In this document: in pieces, positions 12,281-59,513 of the stretch | Layout: every line of letters starts with the position of its first letter | Position numbering within the stretch: the stretch's first letter is position 1 | Assembly (NCBI GenBank): GCA_965178125.1 | Contig: OZ237746.1 | Coordinates: 372,001-436,000, forward strand | DNA length: 64,000 nucleotides | Direction: 5' to 3' | DNA from: Bilabrum cf. latius | Taxonomy: Eukaryota | Made by a program: the position numbers and the translations under genes | Notes under the pieces: generated by a model | What the model was told of the DNA's origin: nothing | The model's input: the letters and a program-made list of their open reading frames with translations, nothing else | The model's database searches: none

Positions 12281-12401
12281 GCCTTCACGGCATGCTAGAG
12301 AAATAACGAGACTTTCCCTGTGGCAACCGAAATCTTGATGAACGTTCGACGAAGCGGGCCTTTGGCGCCAAAGTGCAACAGCAGTCATCTACATCCCCAC
12401 A

Positions 12402-33700: not shown

Positions 33701-34665
33701 ACTCAAACGCAGCGCTGGTGGGCGAAGATGTGGTGCCCCTGACAGAGGATGAGCACAAGGCGATCAACAAGCGCAAGGAAAAGGAGCGCCGCCTCAAGAA
33801 GCGGACCTCGATCGTCATCAAGGACCTCACCGACATCATGCACAGCCGCATCTAGAAGCTCCTGCTAACGCTGAACCACTACGACATGCTTGCAGCGACT
33901 GCGAGTGCGAAACCCGACAGGGACATGGTCGTTGTGGCAGGTGCCGTGTGTATCCTCTTGCGGGTGCCATCGCCATCGTGGCCCATTGCTCGCGAGGTCA
34001 TGCGTTCTCCGCTGTTCGTGTGGCAGGTGGCTCAGGTGCGCCGCTCCCAGCTTAAGGCGCGAGGCATCGTAGTCGCGAAGAAGCTGCTGAGGCAGTGCAG
34101 CTCCGCTGCAGCACCCCTGTACAAGAAAGCAGAGGCAGTCGTCAAGGGACTCGAGGCACTGCCCGACCACATGCTCATCCAGAACAGTAAGGAGGACTAC
34201 GAGAGCCAGGCGGCCGACGTGACTGATGCCGATAGGAAGGGAACCAGCGAGCGCGGCGACAACCTCAAGCTCCGCGAGGTTCTCGTGTACTGGGTGGCCA
34301 AGATGGCTGGTTGGACCCCTTCCGATGCGCGCAACCAGTCAGGAGACGCCAAGGCGGATCGCATCCTCGGTCGGGCGAAGCCCAGCGTGTACATCGAGAA
34401 GAAGAACAGTTTCCTACGGAAGGGCAGCTTCCTCAAGCCTTCGGCATCTGGTTCCACCGCCGCAAGTGGCGGAGCTGCTTCGTCGGATGGCACTGTGTCT
34501 CGCACGAGCGAGACGCGCGTGAAGTATCGGACTGCGGTGGCAGCAGGGGGTGAAGAGCCTGGAGGTCCTGGACTTGATAGTATTGGTGCCAGGAAGGGCA
34601 GTGGGATTGCCCTGGAAGATGTTAAGGCGGTGCATGAGGTAACCGATGCCGCCCTGGGGATATGA
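24713..34665 (+). CDS. ~3200-aa His/Gly-rich repeat protein with a C-terminal dynein-stalk MTBD-like domain; probable intron 24756-25108
   Basis: Eight listed ORFs lie in one frame joined by 10 TAGs and end TGA-TGA. Donor G|GTGAGC and acceptor TTCCGCAG| are phase-compatible. The C-terminus contains LLLTLNHYDM..KPDRDMVVVAGAVCILL..SWPIAREVMRSPLF..VLVYWVAKM. Confidence 0.8.
27847..29941 (+). repeat. Coding tandem repeat, 765-bp (255-aa) unit x ~2.75, built of ~20-aa VGxDGVxR sub-repeats
   Basis: tctggtgtgcgtgtgggtgacgatgg starts at 27847, 28612 and 29377, and the copies are near-identical. Confidence 0.95.
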
Positions 34666-35052: not shown

Positions 35053-36449
35053 TTAATCCTCGTCCTTACCACTGTCAGCCGCGAATCGCACCACTGAACC
35101 AGCCCCCACACCTCTCGGGCCTGGCGCACCACCGCCAGCAGACGTGTCCTCGACCTCTGCTTCAGCCTCAGCTTCGTGCCCAGGGTCTGGTGCAAGGCGA
35201 AGGTAGGGCGCAACAGCATCGAATGTGCCCCCAACCAGCCTACCCCTTGCCTCTTCGTCTGAGATCTCGGGCAAGATCACCACGTCCTGGCCTGGCGACC
35301 ACCCCGCGGGAGTCCCCACGAAGTCATGGAGTGTGGTGGTCGTCAGCGACTCCAAGGATCGGAGCAGTTCCTCGGGAGATCGCCCCATGGTAGGCGGATA
35401 CATCATCGAGACGCAGAGGGCCGTAGGACCAAACACCTCTAAGGCTTTCGCCACCACCCCGGGATCACCGGCCGGGAAAGCCGATTTCACCGGACAAGTC
35501 TGCTGCCTGATCACCCGTGCTGCCTATCTGTAGGCCTCTGATCCCTGAGGTTCCCCAGGAACCACTCGCAGCCTTCCCTCGGCGTCTGCCTCGATGCCCA
35601 AGGCCTTCGCCTCCGCATCGGATGGAAGAAGGCTAGCGTTGCCGCTGCTGCCGCCTGCACACTGGGCACTGGAGATTGCCCCGCCATCCGAACTAATCGC
35701 AGCAGCCGCACCCGCTCTGCTTGAATCAGCTGTAGCGCTTCTGGCGGAACCTCCAGGCGCCGCGACGACGGCCGGGGTGACAGGCGAGGAGCTGCCGAGC
35801 CCCGCAGCTGGTGGCTGTACCGCGCTGCTGCCAATACCTCGTTCTACAGGCAGCGACGGCGAGAAAATCTACAGACCCCTGACGCTCTGCCGCCCACCGT
35901 TCGTGCCTGGCAGCTTCGGACAGAGCAGACCTAGCTCTCTGCACAGGCTGGCGTCTTCGTCGGCGATGATGGGAAACTTGATTGTCACGCCTTGGGTGCG
36001 TTCAATATCGCTTGTAAAGTACAAGTGGTCTTCCACTGCGCCAGGCAAATTGAACAAAGCACCGGAACGATAGGCGCAACTGGCCAGACTAGGTACGTAA
36101 CAGGCTGAACGACTCATACGACTCTTTCTCTCACACGAACCGACGCACAGACCTACAACTGCAGCCCCTAGGGCAGTAATGTCGTCAAATTTCTGCGCAA
36201 TAGCCGCGATCTCGGTTGCGCACACTGGCGTTGCATCTTTAGGATACGAGAGCAGGACCAACCTGCAAAGTGGCATCAAGCACCAAAAAATATACTGGAT
36301 GTAGACGGATGCATGCTTATTCTTTTCCGGTTTGACGGACAAGAAGCTTACCACCTCCCTCTGCACAAGTCATGTAGCCGCGTGGTACCCATGGTTGTCA
36401 CCAACGGCCTGTCTCCTATGCTCTCGCCGAGCGAGAGAGAGCGTGACAT
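35053..36449 (-). CDS. PRDX6: 1-Cys peroxiredoxin (Prx6 family); introns 36263-36351 and 36036-36134
   Basis: Spliced product MSRSLSLGESIGD..RLHDLCRGRWLVLLSYPKDATPVCATE..GSLEDH..FPIIADED..MMYPPTMGRSPEELLRSLESL..TPAGWSPGQDVVILPEISDEEA..PYLR. Two TAGs, ends in TAA. Confidence 0.9.
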
Positions 36450-36629: not shown

Positions 36630-38081
36630 ATGGCAGGTGCAGCGGATACAACAGGCTCCGATACATCAATGGGTCCAGCATCCGGCGCAGGAGGAACAAT
36701 TGAAGTCCCTGTACCGTCCGACAACCCGATGCAACGAGCACTTGAAGAAGGCTTAGCGAATATTAAGGAGTGGAGCGACGATGAAAAGGCATCATATATC
36801 AAAGAAATGGGAAATGCACCCTTGTGGGCAGAAGGCGATGAAGCTGATTACGTCCGCGATGCCTTGGAAACTGAGGTGTACGATGATTCCGAAGAACCGA
36901 TCGTAAAAATGAATGAAGCCAAGGCCCGTGGAAACAGAGCGTATCAAAAGGGCGAATAGTATCACGGAACAGCGTTAAAGCACTGGAAGCAAGCAATCAA
37001 GCACTTTAGAGATATAAGAAGAAGGCTTCGCTCCAAGGTCGTGCTCGAGACGGCCTCAAAGGTGTACAGCAACCTGGCTGCGATCTACTTGTCAAGGGAG
37101 CAGTGGGGCACCACGATCGGGTACTGCACGGAATCGATAACGGCTTGGTCGGGCAACGCTCGCGCTTACTACCGGCTTGCGGAAGCGAACTTGCTCAAGG
37201 GCAACTGCAAGCGCGCACTGGGAGCGATCGACACCGGCCTGGCCCATCCCACCGCCGGGCCGCAGCTGAAAAAAGACCCAAGGGTGACGGATGCTCGGGA
37301 GAGAGCAATGGCGGGACTCGCAAAGCAGGAGGCAAGGGAGGCAGCGATCAAGAAAGCGGAGGAGGACGAGGAGGCCGCCGTGGAGGCAGCGCGCGGCGCC
37401 GCCAAGGAGCGAAACCTCCGCGTGGCGCCGCCCCTGTGGCGTGGCATCGTCCGGACAGGTGCTCGTCCCAGGGTCGAATCCCAGAGGGGCCTGAAAGTAC
37501 TCGTCACACCTGTTGTCCTGCTGTACCCCGTCTCCGGCCAGAGCGACCTCATCGAGGCCATGGCGGAGATGGACACGTTGGGGGCGCACTTGGCCCAGTG
37601 CCTGCCCGCCTCTTAGGCAGCTGCCCAGGCGGCTGCAGAGGGCGCCTCCTCCGCTGATGCTGCCACCGCTGCTGCTGGTTCCTCCTCCTCCTCTTCGCCT
37701 GATGCTCAGGCAGCCCAGGAGGGCTTCCTCCCCTGGGACACGGAACGGAAGTACACCCTTGACAACGTGGACGTGTACTACCAGGCCAACTCGGCCAAGC
37801 CTATGCCGCTTGCCCTAGCATGGAGGAAAGAGTCGGACCCGTTGCACAACGACGCCATGCCGGAGCCGATCTGGGCCGGGCAGAGCTGGGTGAAGGTTCC
37901 CTTGGAGGTTCCCTTGCTACTGGCCCTCGTGCAGCCGGACTGCGTGCTGACAGATGTGCCCGTGTTTTACGTGGTGGCCAGGGGAACAGCGATGCACGCC
38001 AAGGTGCAGGCGGAGGCGGGGGGCAAGATTAGGACACTGAGCATGCCGCGGCGAGGGGGGGCAGGAGGGGCTGGGACGTGA
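36630..38081 (+). CDS. TTC4: TPR co-chaperone TTC4/Cns1
   Basis: TPRs (KARGNRAY, VYSNLAAIYL, NARAYYRLAEA) and wheel-domain motifs PVVLLYPVSGQSDLI and PWDTERKYTLDNVDVYY. TAGs at 36957 and 37614, ends in TGA. Confidence 0.88.
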
Positions 38082-39234: not shown

Positions 39235-42200
39235 TCAAAATTCCTGCTGACCATCCCCTCTCACGATTATGTCCGCCACCAGCACACCACCGTGCCCGCC
39301 CCTCCGCCTAGCACCACTGGCAGCAGACGAATTCGTGGCCAACCTGCCGCCGCTGGACGACACCGAAGATGCACCCGACGCGGTGCCAGAAGAGCCGCCA
39401 TGCATAGCCCTACTAGCCCCGGTGGGAGAAACCTTCCCAGACCCAACCGCCTCGTGACCCGGCCGCACCGTGCTCACCCCGGCCCGCGCCGCCACCGACG
39501 CCACAACGATGGACCGAGCAGAGCTGTCTCCGAGCCTCCAGAAAAACAAAATTAGCACCTTACCCAGCTGGATCAGCGGCTCGCTGATCAGCGCGTCAAG
39601 TGCAAACGATATGAAACTCGCGATCAGCCAGGCCCTCGTCTGCTGCGGAGTGAACAGCACGCCCCACAGCATGCACAGGTAGAAGCAGAACGCCACGATC
39701 ACAAGCAGCACGCCGTACACCACCAGCACTAGCACAGTCCTCTCGAGCGCCAGCTGCGCCCAGGCGTCCACCTCTTGCTCCCGCTGGACCCGCAGCTGCT
39801 TTTGATGCTTCTTCAGAGCGCGCTGCAGGAGCTTCGCGGACCGCTGCTAGCGGAACTTGATGAGCGCGGCGCCGTCCCCGTCCTCCATCTGTCTCCTCTG
39901 CTGCTCCTCCGCCTGCAGCCTCAACGTTTCGTCCATTCTGTACTAGTAGCATCGCAGAAGGCCATACCCGATCAGCACCATCAGGGCGGGCAGAACCTGC
40001 AGACCGAGCACACCCACGGCGGCCTCATACCCGAACGGGAGATCCAGGACACCGATAGCCAATCCACCCGCCATTTGCACGGCAATGGAACAGGCCACCA
40101 GCGAAGCACCAACGCACGCGTCGCCGCGCCTCGACTCGTAGAACCCGCCCGCCGCCAGCAGGATCATGAGAGCGCCGGACACGGCCAGGATCACCATGGA
40201 CCAGATCGCATCAGGCTCCTCTTCCCAGACCTCCGCACTGAGCAGGTACAGGGCCAGCACACCACCCAGGAAACCCGCCCACAGCTGAACGAGCGCCAAG
40301 ATCGTGGCCGCGGTGAGCACCGGCCTGGCCTTGTTGAAGGCGGCCATGTCTGCGCTGGGCATTGGCGCCTTCAAAGACCCGTCCCTGGAGAAGCCCTCCT
40401 GCCCGCTTCCGTCGCTGCCCGCGCACAAAGCCGCATGGCTGCGGATGTACTGGTCGAACACCAGCCGAAGGGCGGCGATGGCGGCGTCCTCTAGGCGCTA
40501 CTTCTCGCCGTCCGTGAGACTGCCTGCCTCCACACCGGCGGCCTGCACTTTTCCTGTAGAGCTTCGGCCACCGCCGGTGCCTGCAGCTGCGGGGTCATGA
40601 CCGGGCCTGTGCTGGGCTGGGGTGAGCCAGGCCCCCAGGGAATCGCCCTGTCCCTTTGGTGCTGCATCCGGGGTGCTGGAGCTGTTGTCGGCACCCGCAA
40701 GCAGTCGAGGGGATGATACCGGCTGTGCTGCAGGGTCGATCTGAAGCTTCCTTTGGGAGTGCCTCGCAGTGGTACCCGCGGCGGCAGACTTGCGAGAGGC
40801 TGCGCCAGATGCATCACCCACCGAACACTTGCTGTCGGCCCCGGCTACCGTGCGCGAGACCGCCACGGTGTCGCCTTGGTCCACGATCTTGCGTGCCCGG
40901 GCAGCGAGCGCGCACGCGATTGTGATCCCCAACTCGTCCGGATTGTCGGCGTTCTGCGCAATCGCCTCGATTGCGGCCGCATCGTCGTCAAGCTCACGCA
41001 TCTAGGCGACGAACGCGTCCACCGAACTCTTCGAAAGTCCGTGACTCACAGCTTTGACGATCATGTCATGCAGCTCGGACTGGGTGGGTTCAAGCGCCCC
41101 TTGCGAAGGTATGCCGCGCATGGCACGGCAGGCCTCGTGCGCTGCCTGCCGCAGGTGCACAGCCCGCACTCTTGGTCGAGTGGATTTCCCGCCACCGAAG
41201 GGCCGCCATGGTGACTTGCTGGCATTTCCGCCCGCACCATCGCCGCTTTGCTTACCCTCTGGACTGCCCGCCACTGCCACGGTGCCACTTACTTCGTCGT
41301 GGACGCCATCGCCCCGACCATCCTCCATCGATGATGCAGTGGGCAGCTCAGCTGGGACGAGCCTGCCCTCATTGGTCTCTCCTCCTGCCTGGATCTCCAT
41401 GGAGGCAAGTATCTCGAGGAAACCGCTACCGCTCACGTCGTCTGCGGCCTCTGCAGCTGCTGCAGTCACGTGGTCGCTCTACATCTGCCTCGCGTACTAG
41501 CCGCCCCCTTCCTAGGCCTCTTCCCGCTGGAGGGCCACATAGAGCATCGAAGCTCTGCGGCGCTTCTTCTTCCCTCCCCTGGACTTGCCAGCAGGCTGGG
41601 GAGGTGCTGCGTCAGCTTGTGGGATGCCCGTCGCGGCTGCGGCCGCGCTTGCATTATTCGACGTAGTTGAGCCTTCGGCCACCTAGCCATCAGATTTTCC
41701 CGCGCTGCCTGCATGGCCGCCAGAAACAGTATTGGACTGCAGCCAGCCGCTCCATACTCCATTATCGTCGACTTTGTGATTCTAGGCACCAGTGGAGGAG
41801 GTGGGACCCGCGCCGATCGTCTCCACCACGTCGATTGGATCTACTGATTTGGCCCTGCTGTCTGGCCTCGCAGCAGCTGCACCATAATTCTGAGTGGTGT
41901 TGCCTGCTGCGATCTGCTTCTGCTCAGTTGGCGTTGCCGCTGCGCTCTTCTCCTCATTGCCATCCACCGACACGGGCATGGGAGCAGTGGAGCTTGATCG
42001 TCCCGGCTTGCCCGTGTGTTTGATCCCGTGGTTGGGGCCCAGCAGCTTGGCTCTTCGCTTCTCCAGCTCGTCGCGCCTCTTCTGCCTCACAGCGTACGAA
42101 ATGTCCAGCGTGTCGGACCGGAAGGTGTTCACAAAGGCGAAGAGGTGCGGCGTGAGCCTCTCGATCGGAACCATGCACACCGCAGAAATGAGAGCTCCCA

Positions 42201-45200
42201 GAAACCTCGCTGAGATGCGGTCGGCACTGCTCCCAAAGAACAGGGCGTTCACAGCCATAGAGGCCAGGCAGGACGACGTCAGGATAAGCACGCGCTATGG
42301 GCGGGTCACCACCAACAAATCTTCCCTAGGAGTTGCAAACACGCTGCCCCAGGTGTGGTTCCTCCGCAACGAGTCGAACCACCGATTGGCAAGGTAGGTC
42401 AGCACCAGCCACAGCGTGCCTCTCTGCCGAAGGTCCTGGAGCTCCCTTCTGGCCTCTGCTTTATCCTCCCTGAGCTTCTCCAGCTCCTGCCGAAGGCCCT
42501 CTTCCTCTCCCCTTGCGGCCGCCTCGATCTTCTCGAGGTCGACGTACGGAGGGAAATAATCCGTCGCGCTGACCTCAAGCACGGCAAGCGCGCGAGGGGT
42601 GGAGGGACGCTTGCGGCGGCGCGACCCACCGGAAGTGGAGCCGCCGCTGCCATAGGTACCACCACCTTCCACCATCGGATTCGAACCCGAGAAGTCGTAG
42701 TGCTTGCCGCTGGCCCGCGATCCAGCGATGCTCGGGTTGGATGCTCCACTTGCAGCTGATGCAGTGCTGTCCCGCCGACCTTGACTGGAAACGTCGTCAC
42801 TGCTTCCAGCGCCCACGCTGTACCGTTGCGCCCCTTGCGGCACGACCTTGCTGCCCCCACCGAATCCAGCGGTGCCGCTTCGAGTGCTGAGCGCAGCTGC
42901 AGTGGCCCTCTCCGCCCTCCTCCTCTTCATCTTCCTAAGGTTTCGAGTGTGCGCGGCAAGGACTTTGAGGTACACCTCGAGCTGGTCCTCTAGATGCAGG
43001 TGCTCCATGCCCATCTCCTTGCGGATCCTGCCAAAGTGCAGCATGTGGGCCTGCCTCAGCTTGCGCATCTCCGGGGTGGTGTAGCCTTCCATCACGGCAG
43101 AGGCGATCCACGCCAGTAGGAATGCACCGAGCAGCACGCTAATGATGATGAGGGGGAAGTAGTTCTCCGGCTTCAGGTAATTCCGAAGGATGCCCGAGTC
43201 ATCCACCGGGTTGACGCGATTGATCGTGGGGAGGTCACGCTTCACCACTGACACGAAGTCTGTCAGGTGGGTCGATGCGCAGATAGCCACGATGCCGCCG
43301 CTGCGCTACTCAAAGCGCAACAGCACCATCCCTTCCGTCTGCTCCTGTGAGGGCGAATAGCTGCTCGTGTTTTGATACCTGCATACAAAGTCCTCCAGGC
43401 GGTCCTCAAACTCCTCGGCCACGGGTAGCTCGACCAGGAGCGGGCAATCGTTGGCATCTGCTGAGGCTTCAGCACCAGCCGTCTGGGCCCGCCTCTGTCT
43501 GGCCCGACGGCGGCGCCCAGCACCAGCTGACTCTGCATCTGAGCCACCGCTGGCACGATAACTCTCCACGGCGAACTCATCGGTGGAGCCGGGCACGCCC
43601 AGTGACACGCTGAACATCGATGATGCCCTGCCTTCCTCTAGTGCGGCAGGCTCCAGCAGTTCCGCAGCTGTCTGGGGGCTGGACAACCACTGCACGAACC
43701 GGACGTCGAACTGTGCCTCGTCGTCGCCTTCCAGTCCGCCCGTCTCATTCTAAGACACAAGGCCAAGCGCAACCAGTCGGGGCAGCCCGAAGACCACGCG
43801 CGAACCGCCGTCGCCCTCAACGACGAAACCGCCGAACTCGCCAGTCACGCGGTCAAACCGCCTCACAATGATCCGAGCGAAGCCAGGCCACTCCGCCTCA
43901 GTGGGAGGTGCACCTGCCACAGCACTGGTCGACATGGCGGCAGATAAGCTGCGCATCACCCCGTCTGTGCGATCCCTCTGCGCATCCAGGTCATAGCTGG
44001 CCGGGGAATCCGCACCTGCGTCGTCGTCAGATCCCGCTGCCTGCATGCGTCGATGGGTGCTCTTTCGCAACCTCCTTGCCTCGCTTTCTTCCTCCTCCAG
44101 CTGGTCGGACAGCAGCGTCTAAAAGTCCCTGCCAACCACCCTAACCGCAAGCAAACCTCCTTCCAGGTCCAGCCCAAGCTCTTCGTCCTCCTCAAAGCTG
44201 CCGTCGTCCATCTGCGCTGCCTGCCAGCGAGCCACCAGCTCGTCTGACAGCTGAGAGAATAGCACATGCATCAGCCCGCGCAGAGAATCGGGGATTTCGG
44301 CCGGATCCTAAAAGACCTGTGCAAGGGCAGTCACGGCCGAACGCAGCGTGTCCGTTGGAGCATCGAGGATTTGGGCCACTGTCTGATTCAGCAGCAGCGC
44401 GATGCTGCCTCGAAGCTCCACTGTTTTGGCAAATGTGTCCATGCTTCGCTGGCACCCGGACCCCGCCCAGCCTTCTTCGCAGAGACAAGCCGCCGAGCAG
44501 GACTAGCCTGGGGTTGGCGAGCAGTTGACGGGAGATCGAGCGCAGGCACCGTGTCCGCTGCACTCTACCACCGGTGCCCCGCTTCCATCGTCGCGGAACA
44601 AGCCGCGGGTGGATTCGGGGCACACGCTTAGGGCAGGTACGCCCAGTTGTGTGGAGTTGATGCCCTCGACGCACCGACCGAAAAAGCACCTTTGGTTCAT
44701 GCCACATTCCGGGTCGCAGTATGCATCGCTGCCAGCAGTGGCGGTGAGCAGGTTGGCCACCTCTTGCAACTGTAATACGATCTCTTCAGCAGAGGCGCTG
44801 GCCGCATCGTCCTCTACCGAGCTGATGCTCTGATTCAGCAGCGCCGACGTTTCCTAGTCCAGCCCGTCCACGACGGGCAGCAGCACGTCAATCTCCACCG
44901 GGTTACCTGCCTCATCGTAGATGGACCGTGTGACGCCACCATGCCTATCTGCAACTTGCACCATGATGTAGATCGTACCGTTGATCACCCCTGGCGTGGG
45001 TGATAGCGTTGGAATAGAAACAGTGGGACTGCTAGACTGCGTGCCGATAGGGACAACAGCCGGGAAATCCACTCCGTTCCGACCCACGAACCGGTCCACA
45101 TCACCGGCAGCGTACTGCTCTGCCTCGGACTGGCTACCAACTCTAAGCACAAAGAAATGGTAAGACAGCGGCAGATCTTCAGGCTGATCGCTCCAGCCAA

Positions 45201-48200
45201 CTGCCTCCAGAGTGACAGAGTCATCGGTGAGAGCGTTGACGCTGGAGCGATCAGCAGTTAGGTACCCTGCAAAAGGCGGTTGGTTGGTCAGGAACTGCAC
45301 AGACGCGGTGGCTGTACCAACTTGCGCCGACCCCCGAAACACAGTGACATCCACCTGCACCACGTACAGCGAGGCGGGGGCAAGGGCGAAGCTCGGAATG
45401 ATCGCCACCCTGTCACGATCAGTACCGGCGAACTCTGCGACGGAGCTTTCACCATCCTCGGAAAACAGTGCCCAACGGAACGAAAACGACAGCGACGGCG
45501 ACACGCCCCTCCCGTTGCGATCGGAAACCCGTGCTGGCAGCACCAGCCGGTTGTTTGTGTTGAGCTTTCCTTGCCGAACCAAGCTGACTGGAAGCTCCAC
45601 CTGAACCGCGTAATCCCCGGGTACTTCAATGGATCGCAGCAGAGCGTACGCGGACGACTGCACCTGCTGAGCAGGATAGCTGGCGTCCACGGACGCACCG
45701 GGATTTCGTGACATTGTAAATCGGAACTGGAAATCCTGCCCCGCGGCCAGGGCTCCCGCCGGTAGCTCGAGCACCGGCCCGCTTCCGGTGGTGCCGGCCA
45801 AGTCTCCACGCAGGCCAGGCGGCAGCGACACAATCGGAAGCGCAGCGTTTGAGGTCAGGTCCAGAGGCAGCCCAGTGTTAGAGTCGATGCAATCGGACGA
45901 AATCGACTCGAAGACGTCCTCTGGGCTGCTGGTGGTGGCCAAACCGCTCGTGTTGCGGCAGCTCCACTCGAAACCGAGCGGCCTGCCGGACAAATCTAGA
46001 TCTGCTGAGCTCAACGCCGACAGTTTTATTTCGTTTGACTGCACTATTCGTCGCCGGTTGTTGGAAATAGTCGCGATCAAGCCAATCGGCTGTACCACAA
46101 CATCTACCGATGCAACTGAGCTGCCAAGGACAGGCCCATTGGCGGACTGCTGTCCCACGGAAGCTTCAAACGTGTACGTGAACCCAGCCCGAAGCATGCC
46201 GGCAGGTATCCGAAGGAGGTATCCGTTCGTGCGCGTCAGCACCGCCAGTTCAGAGTCAGTCGGTAAGCTGGGCAGTGCCAACCCGCTAGCATCCGTCGTG
46301 ACCGCCGTCGCCCTCCAAGTTACGGTGGTTTGCTGCACGCGCCCAGCTCCGCAGGAAGAAGCTCTCACACGCACCCGTAGACTGGTGATGCTTCGCTGAC
46401 TGGTCACCACGCGGGATCCACCGGTGATTTCTACTTTAGGCACGGGCTGGGCGCTCCTGGTCAGGGTGATACGGGTGCGAGACACGGCCGTGCTGAGGAA
46501 ATTTGCCACTGCAAGCTCTACCACTGCGCTACCTCCGATTGGGGGCAAGTCAGCAGGCAGCACAAGGTCGCTAGAGGTCGTGCTGACGCTAGCAAACGAA
46601 GATTGTGCTGCCGCGATCTGGGTGCTTGTGATGGGGGTGGCATTGACGCTGACGAGCGCCCACGAGAATGAGAGTCCACGGCCCAACCCACCCTGCGAGC
46701 CGGACCCGCTCAGCCTGCCTACGTCGCACGGTCCGAGCACCTTGGGGCCTGCGATCACGGCGCGCAGCTCAACAGAAGACCCAGTCGGCGGCTTTACCAC
46801 TGTGCACGAGAGCGAGTTGGACAGAAGAGCATTCTGGCTGGTCCGAATCGACCCAGATTTCAGCACGAGCTCATAGGCCTGCCTCGGGTCTGTGGTGAAT
46901 GGGCGGCACGTAGACCCCGGGACCGCTGGAAACTCCGGCACAAGCGTGGCACCGGGACCTAACTGCATCACCAGCCTCCTGCGTGAATGGAAGGAGCACC
47001 AGGCCGTGGTGGTGCGTGTCCCCGTCTTGACTCGGGAGAGCTGGTTTGTGACTGCCTCGCTGAACAGCTGCAAACAGGGTCCTTCCGATCGGCTTTGACC
47101 GGACGCAGAGGTCCAAAGCCTGGTATACACGTCGGAACTGAAGACGATTTCGATCTGAGCGCCGGAGCCGTCCAACCTGGCGGTGAGGATCGCTGGGGCG
47201 GCAGTGCGGTCCTGCACGACGGAAGACGCCGGTGAGATGACGACGATCTCTCCCGAGGATCCGGTGGTGGCGCCGGTCAGATCACCCGCAGTGGTCTCAA
47301 ACTCGAACCCGACCGGGGCCTCGCGCCCGTTGACACCGTGGACCAGCAGCTTAGAGGGGGAGAGCCAGGCGCACATGGCTGATCCGGTCTGAGCGATAAT
47401 GAGCTGACGGCTGCGCGTCGCCGGGTTGTGACCGAACGCATCCAGCGTGTCTGTTGACAGCATGTCGACATCGGAGCAGTCGAATCCATTGTCCTCGATC
47501 GCCTCCACAAGACTGCTCCCGGTTGCAGTGCTGAGCGATGAAGGCAAGCCTCTTGTGACAGCAAGTCCCGCCATGTTGGTCTCTTTCTCGAATGTGACCA
47601 GCGTCACCCGAGCGGTCTCGATCTTCTTCACGCTTGCGATCCGCGGTGGTCCCACCACGGACACCGCGCCCGTGGTGATGTCGGCACCTTGGTGCAGAGC
47701 GAAGATCGGCACGGTTGTTGCAATGGCCTTCCTGAGGGAGTTGCTGGATGCACCGAGAGTCTGGACGTTGACCGAGTCGTACTCCGGGTCGGCGCTGGAC
47801 AGATTGAAGCGGAACCTGTCCCGAATGGCCCTGGTGGTGGCCAAACTGCCCGGGTTGGTGGACAGAGTCAGGACCACGGGATCTCTCCACTGGTCTGGCG
47901 CGACAACAACCGGCAGCAGCGGGTCTGTTTCCAATGCCAGGCCGGCCGGAATCGAAGCGTTCACCGTCACGTTGTTCTCTGGCTTAGAGAGAAACTCGAG
48001 GGACAGAGACAGGGTCTGCTCGGGCAGGCCACCGGGGCCAGGGGAGGGTGACATGACCACCCCAAATCCAGGAGTTACCTTGACCCCTAGCTTGTCTCCT
48101 TCGGTGATCCGAATGCCCAACCACGTGTCGAGAACCCCCGAAGTGTACAGGCTGTCAGTGGAATTGGACACATCGATCTGAGCCACCATCGCTAGGTTGA

Positions 48201-51200
48201 CCCTGGGGTTGATGGGTCGCACGATCCCGTCACGCTTCATGAGCACTTCGTATCGCTACTCCTCGTCCCAGTTGAACGCATTGAATGACATCGTGCTGGG
48301 GATCGGCACGAAGGAAACGCTGCCAGTCATGCCGACTACTCTCGCGCTGTTGTAAGCGAATAGCCGCACTGTGACGTTTCCGCTTGGCTTGGTAGACAAT
48401 CGCACAGACCCAGTCACTGTGCTTCCTTCGACGTAGAATCCGACGTTCTCAAGCTGTGGAAAGTACGACCCCGGGCCGGACGTCGATACCGTGCGGTCCA
48501 CAGGGCCGATCGTCTTCCTGCCCTCAAGCTTCAGCACGATATCAGGCCGGTCATCTTCGTCTACCAGCAGCCGCACAGTTGTGGTGGACACCTGCTTCGG
48601 CCGTCCGGTGCCGCCTTGCTGGTATAGAGAGAAGGAAATCGCGAGGCCGCTGCATACGGTCGAGTTCAGGCTCTCGTCGTCCAGGTCAGACACGGCGCCG
48701 TCATCCTCTAGCTGCACCTCGAACAAGAACTCGGACGTGTTTGACCAGGTCTGCATGGCGACGGACCCGAGCTGCGCGCCTCCAGAAGCCACGTCAGCAA
48801 GGGTCATACCTCGGAGCGCGATAGGCTGCAAAATTCTGCCGGCGCATCTGCCAGAGACCAGGCCAGAGCCGCCTAGGTCGGCAGCTGCTGCGTTCAAAGC
48901 AGATACTTCGTCGATCTGGATGGACAATGGAAGCCGCGGGCGGCTGGCAGAGTTGATGCCGGCGGCGAACTTGGATCCTTCCGTCGTTCGCAAGATGGAC
49001 ACTACGTCGAGAAATGGCTGCGCCGCGCCTTGCGACCTCGTGGAACGCTCGTCGTTGATTCCGATCAATAAGTCGGGCTGCTCTCCATTCTCCACGCCAT
49101 CGTCACCATCCTCCGACATCACCGCAAGCCTACGCTTGTCCCCAATCTACCCTAAATCATCATCCTCGCTAGATGCGCCTCCTCCACCGATGGCTGTGAG
49201 GCCGCTACGAGGCGAGATCTCGACGAACTAATCGTCGTTGTCAACCACGAAGAACTGGTACACGGGCGGCTAAGCAAACTACACTGCTGCCTTTTCGGCA
49301 GCAGTGAACGTTCGTGAATCCCTCAGGTTGGCCCGGCCTCCGTTCGCCGCACCCCGGACGAAGGAAGCGTCGAATACGGGAGAGAAGAGGGCCCCCACGC
49401 TGCTGTTCCCCATGCGAGACTCGACAGAGTTGGTCTGCTGAACAGGGTCGGTGAGCGTCTGCAGCACGCCCATGCCATCGAACGCCATCGCCACGACCTC
49501 TCGAGGGAACACCGTGGGCTGAAGCAGGACACTCGCCTGGGTGCTGTGCTGTTCCCCACCGATCGGCGGTACAGGCAGCGGCCCGTCGATCAGCCCGGCA
49601 GCCCCGCTCCTCATGCCCGCATACCTCTGATCGCGGGTGTAAGTGACCTCCATCGCGATGCTGAAGAGGGCGACCTCTTCGGCCACGTCATCGTCTGGGA
49701 CCACGATCGACACCACGGCTGCGTCGATCCAACGGTTCTTGTAGAAAGACACAGCAGTCACAGAGTCCGCTGGAAAATTCATTGGGGTGCCTCCGGGCTG
49801 GAATCGAGCGGTGGAAGCCAGCCCCTCCGCGGTTGTATCCTCACCGTCGCCCTAATTGGGCAACTAGGGGAAGTCGACGGGCGGCAGCCGCAGACCGTGA
49901 TAGGCGTATGCCTTGCTGCCAGCCCCCTCGGTCCGAGTTGTGGCCTCAATGGAGATAGCCACCTTGTTCGGGTTGGATTCATCCTATGGACTGGGGCACT
50001 GCTCTGGTTTGACCACTGGTGAAAGCAGCCTTACCAGCACAGTAGTATCAAACGAACCCTCTAGCAGCACGCCAGCGACTCCAATCCCGCCCAGCGGCTG
50101 CAGCAGCTCCCGACTGAACAACGGCGCGCTGCCGGCGATGGGGCCTTGCACTGAGCCGTAGCGGTCAAACACGAGGCCGTTGTCATACTGTACCATTGGA
50201 ACGATGTCTGCAGTCAGATTGAATCGAGCCTCGTTCAGCAGAGTCAGCACGTCTCTGTTGGGGTCTGCTGCTTCAATGGGGGAAGTATTAACGCCCTGCT
50301 CTACGAGGATACCCGCAGGGTCGACGACCGTCACAACAACATCAGCATCCACCGTGCTTGTCGGCACGCTGACAACAGGAGCGCCATTTTCTGACTGAGG
50401 GTCCACGAAAGCAGAAAGTCGCCTCTGGCTGAGCTCCTGCAGCACATAGTACCCGTAGCTGATGGTACCAGCACCATACTCCATCCCATTGTCCAGCTGG
50501 TGATATAGCGCGAAAATCTCCGCGCCGTTCTCCCTCAAGTAGTCGCCTGCAGGGGTGATCCTCACCTCCTTGTACTGGTTCCAGTCTTTGGGAGTGAATG
50601 GGATGAGCACCTGGCCCTCCTCATGGCTCGACGTGTAGTTGACTTCGACTTCGATGCAGGCATCGTTCGCGGCAACGTAGCACGCCTTGAAGTCCGCGTT
50701 GAACCCTTCCAGTGGAAACGAAAAAGAGCCGTTGAAGTGTGAGGCCACGTCGATAGAGCCCTGCGGCGGATTCTTCGGCGGGAGAGAGCGTGAGGTCTTG
50801 CCCACTCGCAGCGGGAGCGTGGCAACCACCTTGACGAAGATAATCGTCTGCGGCTATGCCGTCAACCGCACGCGGTAGCTTGCGGGGGAACAAGGCGGTT
50901 GAGCTGTCGATGACTCGAACACGGGGTAGGCCAGTGCAGGCCCCGACGGGTTCTCGGCTGCCTCAAGCTGCTGCTTGAGATGGGATGCAGCCATGAGAGA
51001 AGTACCGGTGGAAGGCTCAAGCACCACCACCGACTCATAGTTGTAGTTGTCAGCACTCCACGGCGCCGTATCGCTGAGGATCTCGGTGGCCTTTCTAGTC
51101 GCTCGGATGCTAGGCTCGCTGGACTGGGTGCCGTCCCACGCGTAAGACAGCTCCGATCGCCCGGCTCCTCGGTTGGCAGCTGCGGTGCAGTCGCACGGTG

Positions 51201-54200
51201 CCCACTGCTAGGACTCGGCGAGATTGGCTGACCCCGCAGCAAACTCCACGCCAGCGACATCGTCCTCGAGCACCCGCACGAAGATTCGAGGCTGCGGTGT
51301 GTTCGTCCAGGCGACCACACCCGCATCAACCGTGACGTCCACGATGTACGTGCGTTCGACCATGCCGTCTATCTCGTTGTCGATCGGGTTGATGATCCAC
51401 GTGAAATCCGATTGCGAAAGGGAGTAGGTTGCAGACACGCTCGTGCTGCTGAAAGCCCCTCCCGGTGCCGTGATCAGCAAGCCAGGCACAGCTTCGTGTG
51501 ACTGGTACCCTGCGTTCTGGTGCACTGTAAGCGTGACGGTTATCGGCTCCAGCAGCGCAGTGGGCAGACCTAGATCGATACGGACCTCGGTGCCGAGGCC
51601 CGCAGCAGCCAGTGCTGCCCCTTTCTTGCCGTTGATTCCCTCGGCTAGCACGATCGAGTGGGTCTCGTTGTTCGCTGACACATTGAGCACCGACACGGGC
51701 GCGATACCAGACAAGCTCAGTGTGTGCCCCGTGCCCGTCCTTCTCTTGGGCAGCCCAGAGAAGGACAGCGAAGCCTGTTCGGGGATGAGAGATTCGATGC
51801 CATCGCCCCTGTCGTCGTCCCTGGACCCGCCATCTCCGCTACCGCCAGTGTCGCTCTCAATGAAGACCCTGACACGATTTGTGTCGTTCTAATAGATGAA
51901 GAACACTTCATCCGTTCCTCGCCCCGCGATACCCTGGGTCACGAGAGGTTGCCACGCGTACGTGTGCTCCACAGCGCTCACGTTCCAAGCATCACCAAAC
52001 AGAACGGTGCTAATTGAGCCTACGTTTGCAACGCTGTCAGGGTTCACAGCGTTGGTGTCTACGACCAGGAGGTCAAACCCTCCGGTAAGGTCGCTCCTGT
52101 AGGTCCCCAGCACAAAGGAACCGAAGCTGATAGAGCCGGGCAGCTCTGGTCGGATGACGTGCCAGCCCTCGAGGGTGTAGGGATTGCCTGACTGCACCCG
52201 AAGCAGCACCACGGTCCCACCGCATGTGTTCTCCGAGCCCGCGACGCCGCTGCGGGGGGCCCCCACAGCCAGGGTGATGGCGTTAGTGCCGGGTAGCCTG
52301 CCTGGGACGAAGTCGAACGACTCGCCAAACCCCGTGTCAGTGGTGTCTACAGCGGTGGTGAAGGCCGAGCTGGTCAACGCCCCACCCACGAACACCAAAT
52401 TGGTGACACTGGGCCCAGTGGCCTACATCATGTATAGCTCCAAGTCCTCGCCGGAAAAGTCCTTCTTGGTGTACGCAAACACCGCTTGGTCCGTGTCCCG
52501 GGGACAGTCTGGACACTCCTTGATGTCTACCCCGAACGCGTCCGAGACAGAGAAGGCTCCGTTCACGTCGATAGACTGGTACAGCGCCGCAGAAATCACC
52601 TTTTGCTGCTGGCGGTCCCATCGCAGGAAATACATCCCGCCGGGCGCCATCGACTGCCTCCCGACAGCCATAGAGACAAAGTCGTTCGATCGGTTGAACA
52701 CCACCACGGACTCTCCAAACCCCTCGCTTGAGCTCAGGGTCTGTTCCCCAAGCGCGGCACTGCCACTTGACAGCACGATCGAGCTCTCGGTGATCATGTT
52801 GCCGCTGCCGTCGATCCCCTGCAGAACGACCGCGCCCCGACCCTAAGGCCCAAAGGTCGGCACACCGAACACCAGATCCAGCGAACCTTCCGCCCGCATG
52901 GGAGCGACAGAGAAGGACTTCCCACGATCGGCAAAGTCGGCTTTCCCGGCGAAGAAAGTAGAGTCGATCGTCCCGATCCTGGGGTTGGACAGCCCCTGAA
53001 TCCCGTTGGAGGTCTTGATGGTCGCAGAGTCGGCAATCCCCAGCCTGGGACACACCTCGCTGTAGGGCCTGGGAGCTGCCTGAATACCCAGGAACAGCCC
53101 AGACCCTGCCTCAGGGATGCCGTTAAACGATTGAAATGGCAGTCCAAGGAAGAGATACACCGCGTCGTTGGCTGACTGCGGTCCCAGTACGGCCGCAGAG
53201 CTGCCGAACCCGTCCCCTGCTCCGACCCCGGCAGCGGTCCAGTTGACCGCGGCAGTGTCGGGCTTGTCGGGCGAGTAGTAGGTCCTCGCCTCCTCGACCA
53301 GCTCTTCGGAGATTGTGACGAGCGTGAATCCACCGTCGCTGGTCAGGCTCGGGCCCCTTCCGCTGCCCACGATGAGGTCGGTTCCCCCTTTCCTGTCGAT
53401 GTTCCCTGGAGAAGCCAGCGACAGCCCGAAGTGAACCCTTCCCGACGTGCTTCCGAAGAGCTTTGTGACACTTCTGTCCATGGCCAGGTGTCCAGTGGCA
53501 TTGATCGTCACGATGAACACGGTCCCATCCGCCAGTGCGCCGCACTGGGGGCACCCGATGGCGAGGAGAGCGCCGGCCATGCCGTCTGGCAGGCCCAGAG
53601 ACGCCAGCGACTCCCCGATCGAGTCGCCCACCGGCAGAGCAAGGCCCATATCGATCGAGTCGAACCTCTGAGGGGATGGTCCATGGGCCCCGTTGAGGCC
53701 CATGAAAAGCACGTGCACCGCACCCGTGTTCAAAGGGACACCCACGCCGGCAGGGTCGTACCCCGGAGAGCCGACTGCGATGTCCGTGATGCCGTCGCCG
53801 TTCAGGTCGCCGATGGCCGCGACGGACGCACCGAAACGGTCGCCGTGCAAAAGCTGCGAGATCAAGTAAGTAATGCGCATGATGCATGGTATAGGTCGGC
53901 ACATGTCGCAAGATGCGACCAATCATGGGAACGAGGACAGTTCGTGGAAACCAACTCAGTTGTGCTCACCGAAGCCGATACGTTCTTGTCTCCATACATC
54001 TGGCTGTTCAATACATCACAACTGCCATTCATTGTGATCGCGTGGACGGCGCCGGTGAAGGTATTGCTGCCGGTCTCTATCGGCTCCAACGGAGCTCCAA
54101 CGACCACAACGGGAACCTCGCCCTCATTGCCAATGGTCACGCCGTATACGTTAGCTACCGCGAAACCAAATTCAGAAGAAGTGCTTGAGTCTATTTCAAT

Positions 54201-54485
54201 GTCCGAACCACTCTTGAAGCACGGCTCTCCTAGGACGCTACTATTGTCTCCGCCCAATGAGTTCATGAAGATGCCCGGACCATCGGGCGCCCCGACGATC
54301 AAATAAGAGAAATGACCATTTCGCCAACGGCCTGCCGTTACACTTTGGCCGTACTTAGCCGAAGTCTCCAAGGGTGGGGCTTGGTCGGGATGAGCCAACG
54401 GAACGACGGCTGTCGCAGAGCCAGCCGCCTGAGCCGATACTTCGCAAAGATATGCCACAACGAGCACACAAACCAAGCAAATCAT
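39235..54485 (-). CDS. ~5040-aa polycystin-1-like membrane receptor (signal peptide, FG-GAP repeats, Calx/Ig-like repeats, REJ, EGF-like, GPS, multi-TM); intron 53854-53969
   Basis: Exon 2 is a single 14.6-kb frame with 29 TAGs and no TAA/TGA before the terminal TGA-TAA. Motifs: GDRFGASVAAIGDLNGDGITDIAVGSPG; TNQPPFAG..WSDQPEDLPLSYHF; CSGHGAC..CLCEEGWAGSGC; CASTHLTDF; TRP[TAG]RVLIL..MAVNALFF; LWGVLF..AWLIASFISFALDALISEPL. Confidence 0.9.
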
Positions 54486-54831
54486 GATTTGTTCTTCAGA
54501 ATTATTACGAATGCACGGAAATTACTGCTTCCAATCAGTGATAGACCCAACGTCGTTGAGGAAAGTTGGTCCGTGGCCGGCAGCCTTTCGATTCCTCCAA
54601 AGGTGGATATCTCAGGCAATATTCTAACAAGAACCGGCAGTTCTATGTCGTGGAATCAAAATAAGCTAGTCGCCCGATGCAGTTATCAGCAATATATTTG
54701 TTGAGGTGGGTACTGCGCGAGACAAGAGAAACTGCAGCCGTTTTCGCGCCGCGCAATTCTTGCGGAACCAATGGTCGCGAGCCGTGGTCGCGTTTCTTTC
54801 GCATCTGCTATTCTTCAACGTACGAAAAACA

Positions 54832-56618
54832 TCAACGCTTGTGGGCATCTCTTATGATGCCCACCACACTCTCTGACACGGCAAGGCCGGCCGCCAGTGC
54901 CACTGAGTCCTCTGAACCAACGTCAGGCAGGGACCAGCGAATAGCACCGCTAGCACGGCTTGCTACCCCTCCGCTTCCGTCCTTCGTAGTTCCCCCCGTC
55001 GACACACGATCCCCTACAAACTGGTCCTTTCTACCGGAGGGTCCCATCACCAGCTCACCCGCCATCGCGCCTCCTGAAAGCGCCCGCTCGCAGTCCATGT
55101 GCGAGACGGCCATCCGTGCAACGACAGCATCTGCAGTCGCTCGCCACTCCACCGGTGGATACGGCACCCACGCCGGATCAATTGGGATACTAGCGCCAGT
55201 GAATGCCTCTGGTGCGCCGTCCACTCCCGGCTCTGCTCGCTCTCTTGAAGCACTTGCTCCGTGCTCGCCCGCACCGGCTCGCTCCAGCTGCCCGCGCAAG
55301 TGCTTCAGCAGGGAATCAGGCATCCGCGGGGCATCCAGCTCGGCGTATGGAAGCGACATCTCAGTAATATCAGCACTCTTGCCTGTGTCTGGTCCTGGCT
55401 CTGATGAGCTGAACACTCCTGCACCCCCTGCGACAGGTGCGTTGTCCGCCCCGGCCCCGGCCCCGGCCCCGGCCCCGACAGGTTTCTTCGATGCTGTCTC
55501 GCTATCCCTCAACTTGATCTGACCCCCTGCCACTTTCCCTGCTTCTTCCTATTGATATACCTTTAAACCAGCCCCAGCCCCAGCCCCAGCCCCAGCCCCA
55601 GCCCCAGCCCCAGCTCCGCTCTCTCGAAGGGCAGTCGCCATGGACAGGTCCGGCTTGCGGGGCACGCTGATCCTGGGGGGGCAGTGCAGCCTAGTCGCTG
55701 GCACGGACACAAGCCGCCAGTCAGGAAGCATGAGGCCGGTCAGTGCGTTGCCGTAGCAGCATCCCGTGTCGAGTCCGAGGCACCTGGGGTGTATCTGCAG
55801 CTTCTGCTTTGCGTCGTGCCCGAAGACCACTATGCCTGGGCCCCACCATGCTCGCCCCCACAGGGACATGCCGTCCTTGCCGTCAACCCCCTGCTCCTTT
55901 GCGACCAAGTCGGAAGTACTTGCCTCGGAGGATGCCTCCTTTGGAAGCGTGACGAATCGCATGTGTGTGAGGTCACGCTCGGTCATACCATCGGGCGAGT
56001 GGCCGGGCAGCACCCCGGCATGAGCGAGCAGGACCGAGTGGGGCACTTGCTCGCCGTGGTCGTGATCAAACACAACCTCAGCCCACAGGGGGAGCCCTTT
56101 CACCCACTCGTATTCAGCTTCCGTCATCTGCAGCGCCACATTCGCGTGCTCCTTGCGATACCTAACTTCGTCCTCTGCGTTTGCCATGTCTTCGACAGCA
56201 ACACCACGCGTTCTGCAGCGTTGGATTCGCTCGTACTGACGAACCAGCTCCAGCTCATGGTTTCCTTTGATGCAAAGTGCAAAGTTTTCTCGCACAAAGC
56301 GAAGCACACCGATGCTTTGCGGCCCTTTGGCGACCAAATCACCCACAGACACGAGTTCCAGCTTGGCCTGCGGTGCGGCCGATTCACCTTTCGTGCTTCT
56401 CGTCGAGCCAATCCTCTAACATGCACGAACGAGTCCTCCTGCGACACATGCCCCGGGAACAGGTGGAATCAAGCAGCTTGCGACACAGCTTAAGGTGGCC
56501 ACAACAATTCTCGACCGTGGTTGCACTCACTCAGCTCATCCAAACAGCCATGGACATCGCCAACAATAATACATCGCCTAGTATGCAAGCGAGAGCCAAC
56601 CCTGCCCAGTCGGCGCAT
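54832..56618 (-). CDS. ApaH-like metallophosphoesterase (ALPH/Ppn2-type); intron 56439-56530
   Basis: IIVGDVHGCLDEL, VGDLVAKGP, KGNHE, AHAG, VFGHDA, GLDTGCCYG. TAGs in exon 2 and at 55549, ends in TGA. Confidence 0.9.
55569..55614 (-). repeat. (GGGGCT)n hexamer repeat encoding a Gly-Ala tract; related (GGGGCC)n at ~55448-55476
   Basis: ccccag is repeated ~7 times on the + strand. Confidence 0.9.
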
Positions 56619-56800
56619 CAGGGAATTGTCTCAGGCAGGCACCTAATCACTGCCAGTGGTGACGGCTGCCTCTAGCCGTGACGATGATTCGATCCACTTG
56701 TCGCACCTGATTCAGAACGGCCCGGAATACTCAGTGGCGCTGCTTTCGAGAAATAATCATTAGATCATTGCGGCGTGCATACCTGCGAGTCGCGACTCGA

Positions 56801-57937
56801 ATGCAAGCGGAAGCAGATGCGCTGATTGGCTTCAGGTACTCTACTGCAACTACCGGAGCTCCGCGGTCAGATACCGCTGCGGTGGCAGTCGGGGCGAAAA
56901 GAAAGCGCGATGCGACTCAAATCAATGCTGAATCTATTTCTGCGACCTCGGTGTCGGTTGGTGTTCGAGCCGCAGCTCGCTCCACGTCACCTGCATCGCC
57001 GGCCAAAAAGGCAAGATCAAGCTCTAGTAGGAAGTCCCCGTCGAAGTCTCCGAAGAAATCAAAAGGTAGCAAGTCGCCAATGAAGCCCATTGATCCTCCC
57101 ACAGATTGGCGAGATGTGTACGGCATTATCAAGGAGATGCGATCCAACCGAGATGCGCCAGTGGACACGATGGGATGCGAAAGCCTCGCTGATACCAAGG
57201 CAGACCCGAAAACGCAGAGGTTTTAGACGCTGGTTTCACTTATGCTCAGCTCCCAGACGAAAGACGAGATAAACTACGCTGCGATGCAGCGATTGCGAGC
57301 CTACGGCTTGTCTGCCAAGACGATGGCCGAGGCCGACACCGCCACCATCGAAAAGCTGATATATCCCGTGGGTTTCTACCGCAACAAGGCAAAATTCATC
57401 AAAGCAGCCGCGGCCCAGCTTCTGGCAGACCTGGACGGAGACATCCCGCGCACCGTGGAGGGCCTGTGCAAGCTCAAAGGGGTGGGCCCCAAGATGGCCT
57501 ACATCACCATGTCGGCGGCGTGGGGGGACCCCGTGGGAATCGGGGTGGACGTTCACGTGCATCGCATTGCAAACAGGCTGCGGTGGGTGAAGACCAACAC
57601 TCCCGAGGAGACCAGGTTGGCGCTTGAGGGCTTTGTTCCCCGGAGCCAGTGGGCGGAGATCAACATCTTGCTCGTGGGCTTCGGACAGACGGTCTGCCTC
57701 CCCCGGGCACCGCTCTGCGGGGAATGCGCCGCCAGGTCACGTTGTCCCGAAGGCAAGAAGTTCAAGGGTGAAATCAGTGTTACGAGTGCGCGCGGGTTGC
57801 TGATGGCCACAGCTGCTTCCTCCTCAAGTGGTACCGCAGCTAGTGACGGAGCTGGGGCTGCAACCGGCGGTGCCAGCGCCAGCACGGACGTAGAAGAGGG
57901 CGGCATTGGGGTGCATCGCACTGTGATGCTATCGGCT

Positions 57938-57989
<52 letters not shown>

Positions 57990-58453
57990 CTTAGGTCATG
58001 CAGAGCCAGATCTTGCCAGCTGCCGGACCCAGCACCCCGTCTAGGCGCCGCGCACGTAGCCCATCCGGTTCCGCAGGCCGGTCCCCGTCCCCCCGCCGCC
58101 GGTCTAACCTGACCTCCCCCGTGGACATGAGCCCCGTGGCGGAGGCAAGGGCGATTTAGAGGAAGGCGGAAGAGGCGGCAAGAGCTGCCGGTGCACGGTC
58201 ATCGGCAGGCGAGAGCGAGAGTGCGGCCGCGGCCGCGGCCACTGGCAGCAATGCAGAGCGACCAAGTGGTGAGGCAGCCGACCCGGAGATCGAGGTCGCG
58301 GGGGAAAAGGGGGACACGCAGAAGGCCGGCAGTGCTGCTCCGGCGGCGGCAAGGAGAAGGAGCCCGCGGCGGGGGCTGAGGAAGGGTGCACCGCGGGCAG
58401 GTGCAGCGGAGGGGAATCCCCAGTGGCAGAGCAAAGGAGAAGGGAGGCAGTGA
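56801..58453 (+). CDS. NTH1: Endonuclease III-like DNA glycosylase/AP lyase
   Basis: APVDTMGC, RF[TAG]TLVSLMLSSQTKD, HhH LKGVGPKMA, GIGVDVHVHRI and Fe-S motif C-x6-C-x2-C-x5-C. A low-complexity tail continues through TAGs 57992 and 58157 to TGA 58451-58453. Confidence 0.95.
57938..57988 (+). repeat. (AGC)n microsatellite encoding poly-Ser in the NTH1 tail
   Basis: About 17 perfect AGC units. Confidence 0.95.
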
Positions 58454-58831
58454 GCACCGGAGCGAGCGCAATGGCGAGGGCATGTTGTGCGTGATAGCAC
58501 CGCCTTGGGTACATGCGCTCCGCGGCATCATGCCACTTTTGTCGGCAGCAGCACTGGCATGGGAAGATTTGTTTCACTGGCAGACTGGCTTCGGCAGATG
58601 ATGACGCAAAGAGAGAGCACAGCGTACCTCAAATGATTCTATTGCAACAGTGACGGCATTTTGTCGCCCCTGCCACACGTTCAGGCACACGAAAACCACC
58701 TGCATTCCACCCCATACTACCATTTTGGTGTGGCACTGGCAGCTAGACAGCCGCCCAGGGATGCGCGTAAACGCTGTCCTCACCAGCAAACTGCGCTGCG
58801 ACCACCCACCACCCAAGAGACATCATCGAAT

Positions 58832-59513
58832 TCATTCCTCCTCCTCGTCAGCCTCGGCCTCCTCGGCATCGACGGTAGCCTCCTCGGTCAACAGGCCCTT
58901 GAAGGTGTCCACTGGCACGTTCTTCACGATCGTGTACATCTTCACGTCATCATCCTCATCAGCCTCGTCGTTCACACCAACGTGGCGCTCAAGCTTCACG
59001 CGCACCCTTCGCGGCACGTTGCGGATCCCCTTGTGCCAGATGTACTTGTTCAAGCCAACGTCGATGCGGATGTCGTCGGTGCCCATCATCTTCTTGGCGA
59101 AAGCCTTGACAGTGCGCACGGCACGGGCGGCCCTCTTCTTGAAGCCTCTGCAATATAATAAGGCATCATGCGAGCGAGGAAGCTGGATGATTCGCGATGC
59201 AAAGGCCGCAGTGGCACTCAGTACAAGTCAGCAGCAACTTCACAGACCAAACATCGAGAATCCAGCGTCGCCACTCGATAAACCGATAAACTTACACCTT
59301 GTGCAACTTCTTGTGCAAGTTGATGGTTGCCACGAGGGCCTTCTCCTCTGCGAAACAAAACCAGGCGACAGTACGAGGCTCGATCGAGAGTAAATGAGGC
59401 TCATCACTGGCTGCAAGTACCTAATGGACTACAGAGGTAGATGCGTGAAAATCGTGTAATATTTGCAAGATACGGAGCTCACGATCAGCATCGGGAGCCA
59501 CCACAGACGCCAT
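58832..59513 (-). CDS. RPL31: 60S ribosomal protein L31 (eL31); introns 59348-59482 and 59148-59295
   Basis: Spliced product MASVVAPDADQEKALVATINLHKKLHKVGFKKRAARAV..MGTDDIRIDVGLNKYIWHKGIRNVPRRVRV. Both introns are GT-AG and phase-compatible. Ends in TGA. Confidence 0.96.

Follow-up and report, generated by a model that had tools for sequence, protein, structure and literature searches.

UAG very probably encodes glutamine in a GC-rich 64-kb nuclear DNA window that carries an NTH1 gene

The stretch of DNA analysed here, called the window in the following, is 64 kb long and carries an NTH1/endonuclease III-like gene at 56801-58453 on the plus strand. Read from the ATG at 56801, which is the inferred start, the frame runs to a TGA at 58451-58453 and comprises 550 amino acids, with three in-frame TAG codons at residues 142, 398 and 453. 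Two Pfam domains were found in the protein, HhH-GPD (PF00730, residues 145-280) and HhH (PF00633, residues 211-234). An end-to-end alignment with human NTHL1 (7rds, E 2e-73) spans the GPKMA, DVHVHR and four-Cys segments, which we take to hold the catalytic Lys and Asp and the Fe-S cysteines. With its HhH-GPD domain and its four-Cys Fe-S motif, the predicted protein is assigned to the eukaryotic NTH1/NTHL1 glycosylases. The first TAG (57224-57226, +) codes for residue 142 and is found in the context K-T-Q-R-F-TAG-T-L-V-S-L-M-L-S-S-Q-T-K-D. A sequence-only reading of this DNA had placed it inside an otherwise intact enzyme, and the frame, the Pfam domains and the NTHL1 alignment agree with that. 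Both the HhH-GPD and the HhH domain are located wholly downstream of residue 142, thus a stop at this position would delete the catalytic domain, as had been proposed.

The same reading had named Gln as the residue of the NTH1 family at this position, which was confirmed by the family alignment. In the best 120 NTH1 homologues the column contains Q in 115, H in four and a gap in one sequence, and neither Leu, Tyr nor Glu occurs. Human NTHL1 (7rds) has RYQV at this site and the bacterial endonuclease III 1p59 has PFEL; because of the latter, the column alone is not fully diagnostic against Glu. The second TAG (57992-57994, +) follows a poly-Ser run in a poorly aligned region and lies inside a repeat that is skipped by the aligned contigs; Gly is found at this place in the related species L001, which is described below. 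The third TAG (58157-58159, +) is located just past a motif conserved between both species, and record 5 of sequencing run X5 is identical here.

The neighbour of NTH1 is the gene for ribosomal protein L31, of which the last exon (58832-59146, -) contains no TAG and ends with TGA (TAA in L001); its intron joint, 59147-59296, is seen in X5. The window also contains a very large gene for an FG-GAP/REJ/GPS membrane protein. Its last exon (39235-53853, -) has 29 in-frame TAGs and ends with TGA, and a GT-AG intron is located at about 53854-53969. The whole protein (39235-54520, -) has approximately 5000 residues with multiple membrane spans and is polycystin- or adhesion-receptor-like. A TTC4/Cns1-like gene (36630-38081, +; PF18972) has two in-frame TAGs and ends with TGA. 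Its orthologue P0122, approximately 90% identical and the one protein returned from 8000 scored candidates, has Q at TAG 37614. Three further long frames end with TGA: an armadillo-repeat protein frame (4600-10086, -) with 12 in-frame TAGs, a frame of 1385 codons (13413-17567, -) with 10, and a repetitive frame of 3231 codons (24973-34665, +) with 12, the last two having no Pfam match. At 1-560 (-) the N-terminal region of the armadillo-repeat gene is present a second time, in a diverged form that also has in-frame TAGs and leaves the window at its left end; the two are probably tandem paralogues. The 3231-codon frame contains long Gly/Val/Asp-rich repeats at approximately 27500-30000 and shows a strong GC skew.

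Additional features are a 75-bp tandem repeat at 1677-2947 (16.9 copies, 97% identity), in which several reading frames of either strand are open, and a 304-aa protein at 21936-22850 (+) that consists of two similar halves, has no Pfam match and contains no TAG among 11 Gln codons. A peroxiredoxin-like gene (35053-36369, -) and a SpoU-like gene (10880-12448, -) are split by long low-complexity Ala/Ser/Gly insertions, and this style of low-complexity insertion is common to most genes of the window. The window is intron-poor and has a GC content of approximately 0.6 overall, ranging from about 0.53 to 0.72 per 2 kb.

With the standard code, the longest frame in the 64-kb window has 1154 codons. 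Reading TAG as sense yields frames of 4896, 3231, 1829 and 1385 codons, while the longest frame stays at 1154 codons if TAA or TGA is read as sense. A code with UAR as Gln (table 6) was rejected on this result for TAA. The longest frame contains 29 TAGs and not a single TAA or TGA over 4895 codons, and the other two frames of the same strand have 201 TAA/TGA in 9790 codons; log10 P for the absence of TAA and TGA from the longest frame is about -44. None of the four longest frames contains an in-frame TAA. Twelve of the 16 frames examined have in-frame TAGs. Counting over 15 frames (17,022 codons) gave 142 CAA, 393 CAG and 94 TAG codons, so that TAG makes up approximately 15% of the Gln codons; these are stop-to-stop frames, which include some sequence upstream of the starts, and several of them have no Pfam match.

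The frames end with TGA in 12 and with TAA in four of 16 cases, a count that is partly circular since TAG was treated as sense when the frames were delimited. Four TAG-free genes (NAA10, a 305-codon frame, a cytochrome b5-like exon and RPL31) end with TGA under either code. No TAG occurs among the gene ends that are fixed by orthologues, and about six ends in all are independent of the frame definition. TGA is thus well supported as a stop; for TAA the evidence consists of four window frames and the RPL31 end of L001.

These ends bear on the possibility that UAG has two meanings, coding for Gln within genes and terminating some of them, or that a leaky suppressor tRNA competes with eRF1 for it. 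A terminal TAG would be missed by the frame definition used. The last TAG lies 21 codons before the TGA in the armadillo-repeat frame and 32 codons before it in the ankyrin frame, and RPL31 and NAA10 are among the TAG-free genes, which could mean that UAG is slow or disfavoured. However, 29 TAGs in one transcribed frame would require near-complete read-through, and the ends of NTH1, TTC4 and RPL31, which are fixed by orthologues, as well as those of all four TAG-free genes, are TGA. We therefore regard a dual use of UAG as unlikely; it would in any case be compatible with Gln at the NTH1 site.

To assign a residue to UAG, the window was compared with its relatives. A metagenome scan identified eight NTH1 loci. 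One of them, L001, belongs to a related species that is 82% identical over 222 columns of the NTH1 core, and in L001, as in the window, RPL31 is the neighbour of NTH1. In the NTH1 tree the window and L001 were grouped with a support of 99, and beyond this pair the tree was unresolved; it was made with a quick method, and P0003 was omitted from it and replaced by L001. L001 has TAG at two positions, in the same column as the window TAG at 57224 and in the Gln column of the SSQTKD motif, for which the window uses CAG (57254-57256, +); in this second column 117 of the 120 homologues have Q and none has Glu. Conversely, the third window TAG, at 58157, is CAG in L001, so that the two species show reciprocal swaps. 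The other seven metagenome loci have CAA at the column of TAG 57224 in six cases and are unreadable in one.

The NTH1, TTC4 and REJ genes together contain 34 TAGs, of which 11 could be tallied against the closest homologue; the residue facing TAG was Q at eight sites, E at one, N at one and G at one. In the same tally CAG faces Q in 41 of 49, CAA in 4 of 10 and GAG in 2 of 93 cases, and TAC, TAT, TTG, CTG, AAG and TGG face their usual residues. The homologues used here have at least 45% identity, a cut-off that was picked after the tally over all hits had been seen. In that first tally, which comprised all 134 REJ hits, TAG faced Q in 14 of 209 cells and CAA/CAG in 105 of 763, both near noise; the tally was repeated at the higher identity because distant REJ homologues are uninformative. 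The three sites without Gln are 43306 (E, in a 91% identical orthologue), 43750 (N) and 57992 (G, poorly aligned). Three of the 134 hits, P0160, P0177 and P0188, are fragments with 90-94% identity whose last residue is the one just before a window TAG, as expected if a standard-code gene caller had cut them in a relative sharing the TAG. The proposal of the sequence-only reading that TAG is Gln is therefore upheld at the NTH1 site and across the window, and it has a stronger basis in the TAG/CAG swaps with L001 and the tally of 8 in 11 than in the site itself.

Another residue for UAG is very unlikely, be it Glu, which is the most plausible one and is used by ciliate PL0344, or Leu, Tyr or Ser. 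Such a reading could draw on the E at TAG 43306 in a close orthologue, on the Glu of bacterial Nth at the NTH1 column and on a Ser codon (TCG) that the divergent run X9 has at TAG 49984; both GAG and TCG are one base away from TAG. Against this, Q is found at eight of the 11 TAG sites, E at one and Leu or Tyr at none, and the true Glu codon GAG hardly ever faces Q. The SSQTKD column, TAG in L001, is likewise free of Glu. Glu, Leu and Tyr were rejected on this tally. The TCG of X9 lies in a variable stretch. It looks, like the E at 43306 and the bacterial Glu, like an ordinary substitution at a variable site, and such substitutions are no commoner at TAG than at CAG/CAA.

The NTH1 stretch is present, in whole or in part, in 14 of the 17 listed sequencing runs, seven of which contain half of its words or more. 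Four different coded organism labels occur among the runs that contain at least roughly half of the words, a pattern compatible with a heterotroph that was co-sequenced with cultures of other organisms. Contigs of four runs (X5, X6, X7 and X9) were aligned to 49900-59400. The X5 contigs lack three GT-AG segments of the minus strand, at about 53854-53969, 56437-56530 and 59147-59296. The first of these is also skipped in X6 and is read through by one X9 contig. Because of these intron-skipping joints X5 was taken to be spliced RNA; the automatic guess for X5 is 'probably DNA' and no run with the NTH1 stretch is recorded as RNA, so that the RNA status was judged from the joints. Over 56707-57930, 57996-58605 and 49900-53853 the X5 contigs have no other letter and no gap. 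These identical stretches include the first NTH1 TAG (record 4), the third NTH1 TAG and six TAGs of the FG-GAP/REJ gene, the latter in record 1, which is 15,421 nt long and covers 49900-53853 without differences or gaps. In X7 (record 21) 57086-57722 is unchanged at a depth of 2, which covers the NTH1 TAG. X6 was left out at this TAG, since its contig extends 29 letters leftward and the rule demands 31. UAG is thus kept in the mature mRNA, the RNA nature of X5 being deduced from its GT-AG joints. An untranscribed gene, which had been named beforehand as an observation that would speak against Gln, is contradicted by the spliced X5 assembly, which spans the NTH1 TAG without a difference.

The same contigs bear on the possibility that the TAGs are absent from the mRNA, because of editing (U-to-C or A-to-I) or as part of micro-introns ending with TAG. 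The surroundings have an AG-GT...TAG look, and CAG would be restored by U-to-C editing. However, the spliced X5 contigs show neither other letters nor gaps over 56707-57930 and 49900-53853; since contigs drop rare variants, partial editing would be compatible with them. A-to-I editing would yield Trp, which is absent from the NTH1 column in all homologues. Editing and micro-introns were rejected on the unchanged X5 contigs, and we consider them highly improbable. With the standard code, the NTH1 TAG would have to be a nonsense mutation, a lesion of a pseudogene or an error of sequencing, and a single common transition from CAG to TAG would suffice for it. This explanation has a negligible probability and is refuted by the read-through frames (94 in-frame TAGs in 15 frames), by contigs from two further studies that have the same base and by the same TAG in L001.

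Taken together, UAG is a frequent in-frame codon that is present in RNA spliced as judged from its joints and that alternates with CAG/CAA between orthologous sequences. The residue inserted at UAG is, as we infer from these comparisons, very probably Gln, and the nuclear code would then be one with UAG as Gln and both UAA and UGA as stops. The recoding is limited to UAG and does not extend to UAA or UGA, and it is older than the split between the window species and L001. UAG would thus serve as a third Gln codon, used for approximately 15% of the Gln positions in the counted frames, while UAA and UGA would end translation, UGA most often. ARAGORN found no tRNA genes in the 64-kb window. By analogy with other recoded lineages, UAG might be read by a tRNA-Gln with the anticodon CUA, which is one base from CUG, without wobble onto UAA; passages of PMC11687900 suggest that such a tRNA would enable UAG to change alone. 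The release factor eRF1 may have lost UAG recognition, or have it weakened, and may have kept the recognition of UAA and UGA.

A code with UAG as Gln and UAA and UGA as stops corresponds to NCBI table 15. Among nuclear genomes, a reassignment of UAG alone to Gln is described in passages of PMC11687900 for the fornicate Iotanema spirale and the ciliates Hartmannula sinica, Trochilia petrani and Protocruzia tuzeti. As far as these passages go, the window resembles those four in UAG as Gln, in UAA and UGA as stops and in UAG being widespread in genes. With widespread UAG, conserved Gln columns, retention in the mRNA and UAA/UGA stops, the window code matches this type. The UAG share of the Gln codons given there for two phyllopharyngeans is 18.5% and 31.8% (PMC11687900), compared with approximately 15% in the window. 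The window differs in being GC-rich and intron-poor and in ending 12 of 16 frames with TGA, whereas in recoded phyllopharyngeans UAA is the stop of 86.9-98.3% of the genes (PMC11687900). The lineage appears unrelated to the known taxa with this code, hence it would represent an independent origin.

Other reassignments are set out in passages of the same source. UAR is Gln (table 6) in many ciliates, ulvophytes, Hexamita, Streblomastix and Amoeboaphelidium (PMC11687900). The window has UAG as Gln in common with these, but UAA, which is Gln there, is a stop here, as in the RPL31 gene of L001. UAG and UAA are also uncoupled in an uncultured rhizarian and in TARA ciliate MAGs, which have UAG as Leu, and in Scotinosphaera, which has UAG as Ser; for ciliate PL0344, UAA as Lys and UAG as Glu are described (all in passages of PMC11687900). 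In all of these UAG and UAA differ in meaning, as in the window, whereas the residue here is Gln. The type of code is thus known, and the window lineage is a further case of it, real, well supported and rare.

The DNA is eukaryotic, and its source is probably a stramenopile and, somewhat less securely, a bicosoecid that belongs to the Bilabrum lineage or is close to it. Of 20 REJ homologues that were looked up, three had a taxon name, namely Bicosoecida sp. CB-2014, Cantina marsupialis and Aphanomyces invadans. All three are stramenopiles and two are bikosian, and as homologues they are distant paralogues. Among the 34 hits of the RPL31 search there was no named bicosoecid, and two Atlas searches gave no indication of the lineage. 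UAG has reportedly been described as Gln in a lineage of Bicosoecida that includes Bilabrum. In a literature search that had subscription journals outside its scope, we found no report of such a code in a stramenopile nucleus, and the passages seen of a 2024 stramenopile review (PMC11412368) do not mention one.

For the channelrhodopsin B1ChR2 of Bilabrum sp. (Bicosoecida), one of the alleles was deposited as pseudo for a premature stop, according to part of the supplement of PMC9733931 (Data S3). Compared by eye, the stop of this allele is a TAG, for which the other allele has CAG; its frame is long and GC-rich and ends with TGA (PMC9733931, in part). This is the same TAG/CAG and TGA pattern as in the window, found in one gene, which the window does not share. 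The authors do not name a code change in the passages searched of PMC9733931 or of the preprint. The TAG/CAG pair is what a bicosoecid with UAG as Gln would produce. Under this code the pseudo allele would be intact and would have a C-terminus much longer than that of the partial version that was characterised. We put forward as a tentative proposal, with the chances somewhat against it, that a GC-rich bicosoecid-like clade, comprising at least the window species and L001, and probably Bilabrum, has an unreported code with UAG as Gln and UGA as the main stop. No earlier change of a nuclear code would then be on record for stramenopiles. Public runs contain both DNA and transcript sequences of this clade, which would be a candidate type of host for giant viruses with TAG as Gln.

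Few lineages are known whose nuclear code gives UAG another meaning than UAA, and in four of these UAG is Gln, as stated in passages of PMC11687900. An apparently independent case that is GC-rich and UGA-dominant puts to the test whether this change requires low GC and a predominance of UAA. Since eRF1 has to separate UAG from both UAA and UGA in such a lineage, it would provide a natural model for release-factor specificity and amber suppression. Proteins of the lineage sit in the databases as fragments cut at TAG, and the B1ChR2 allele seems to have been annotated as pseudo for the same cause. A 2026 catalogue states, in the passage used here, that all confirmed giant-virus isolates come from hosts with the standard code (PMC13524828), and Cafeteria, a bicosoecid, is among the known hosts of giant viruses (PMC11412368, in part). 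By analogy with Cafeteria, the window lineage may be a plausible type of host for giant viruses in which TAG is Gln.
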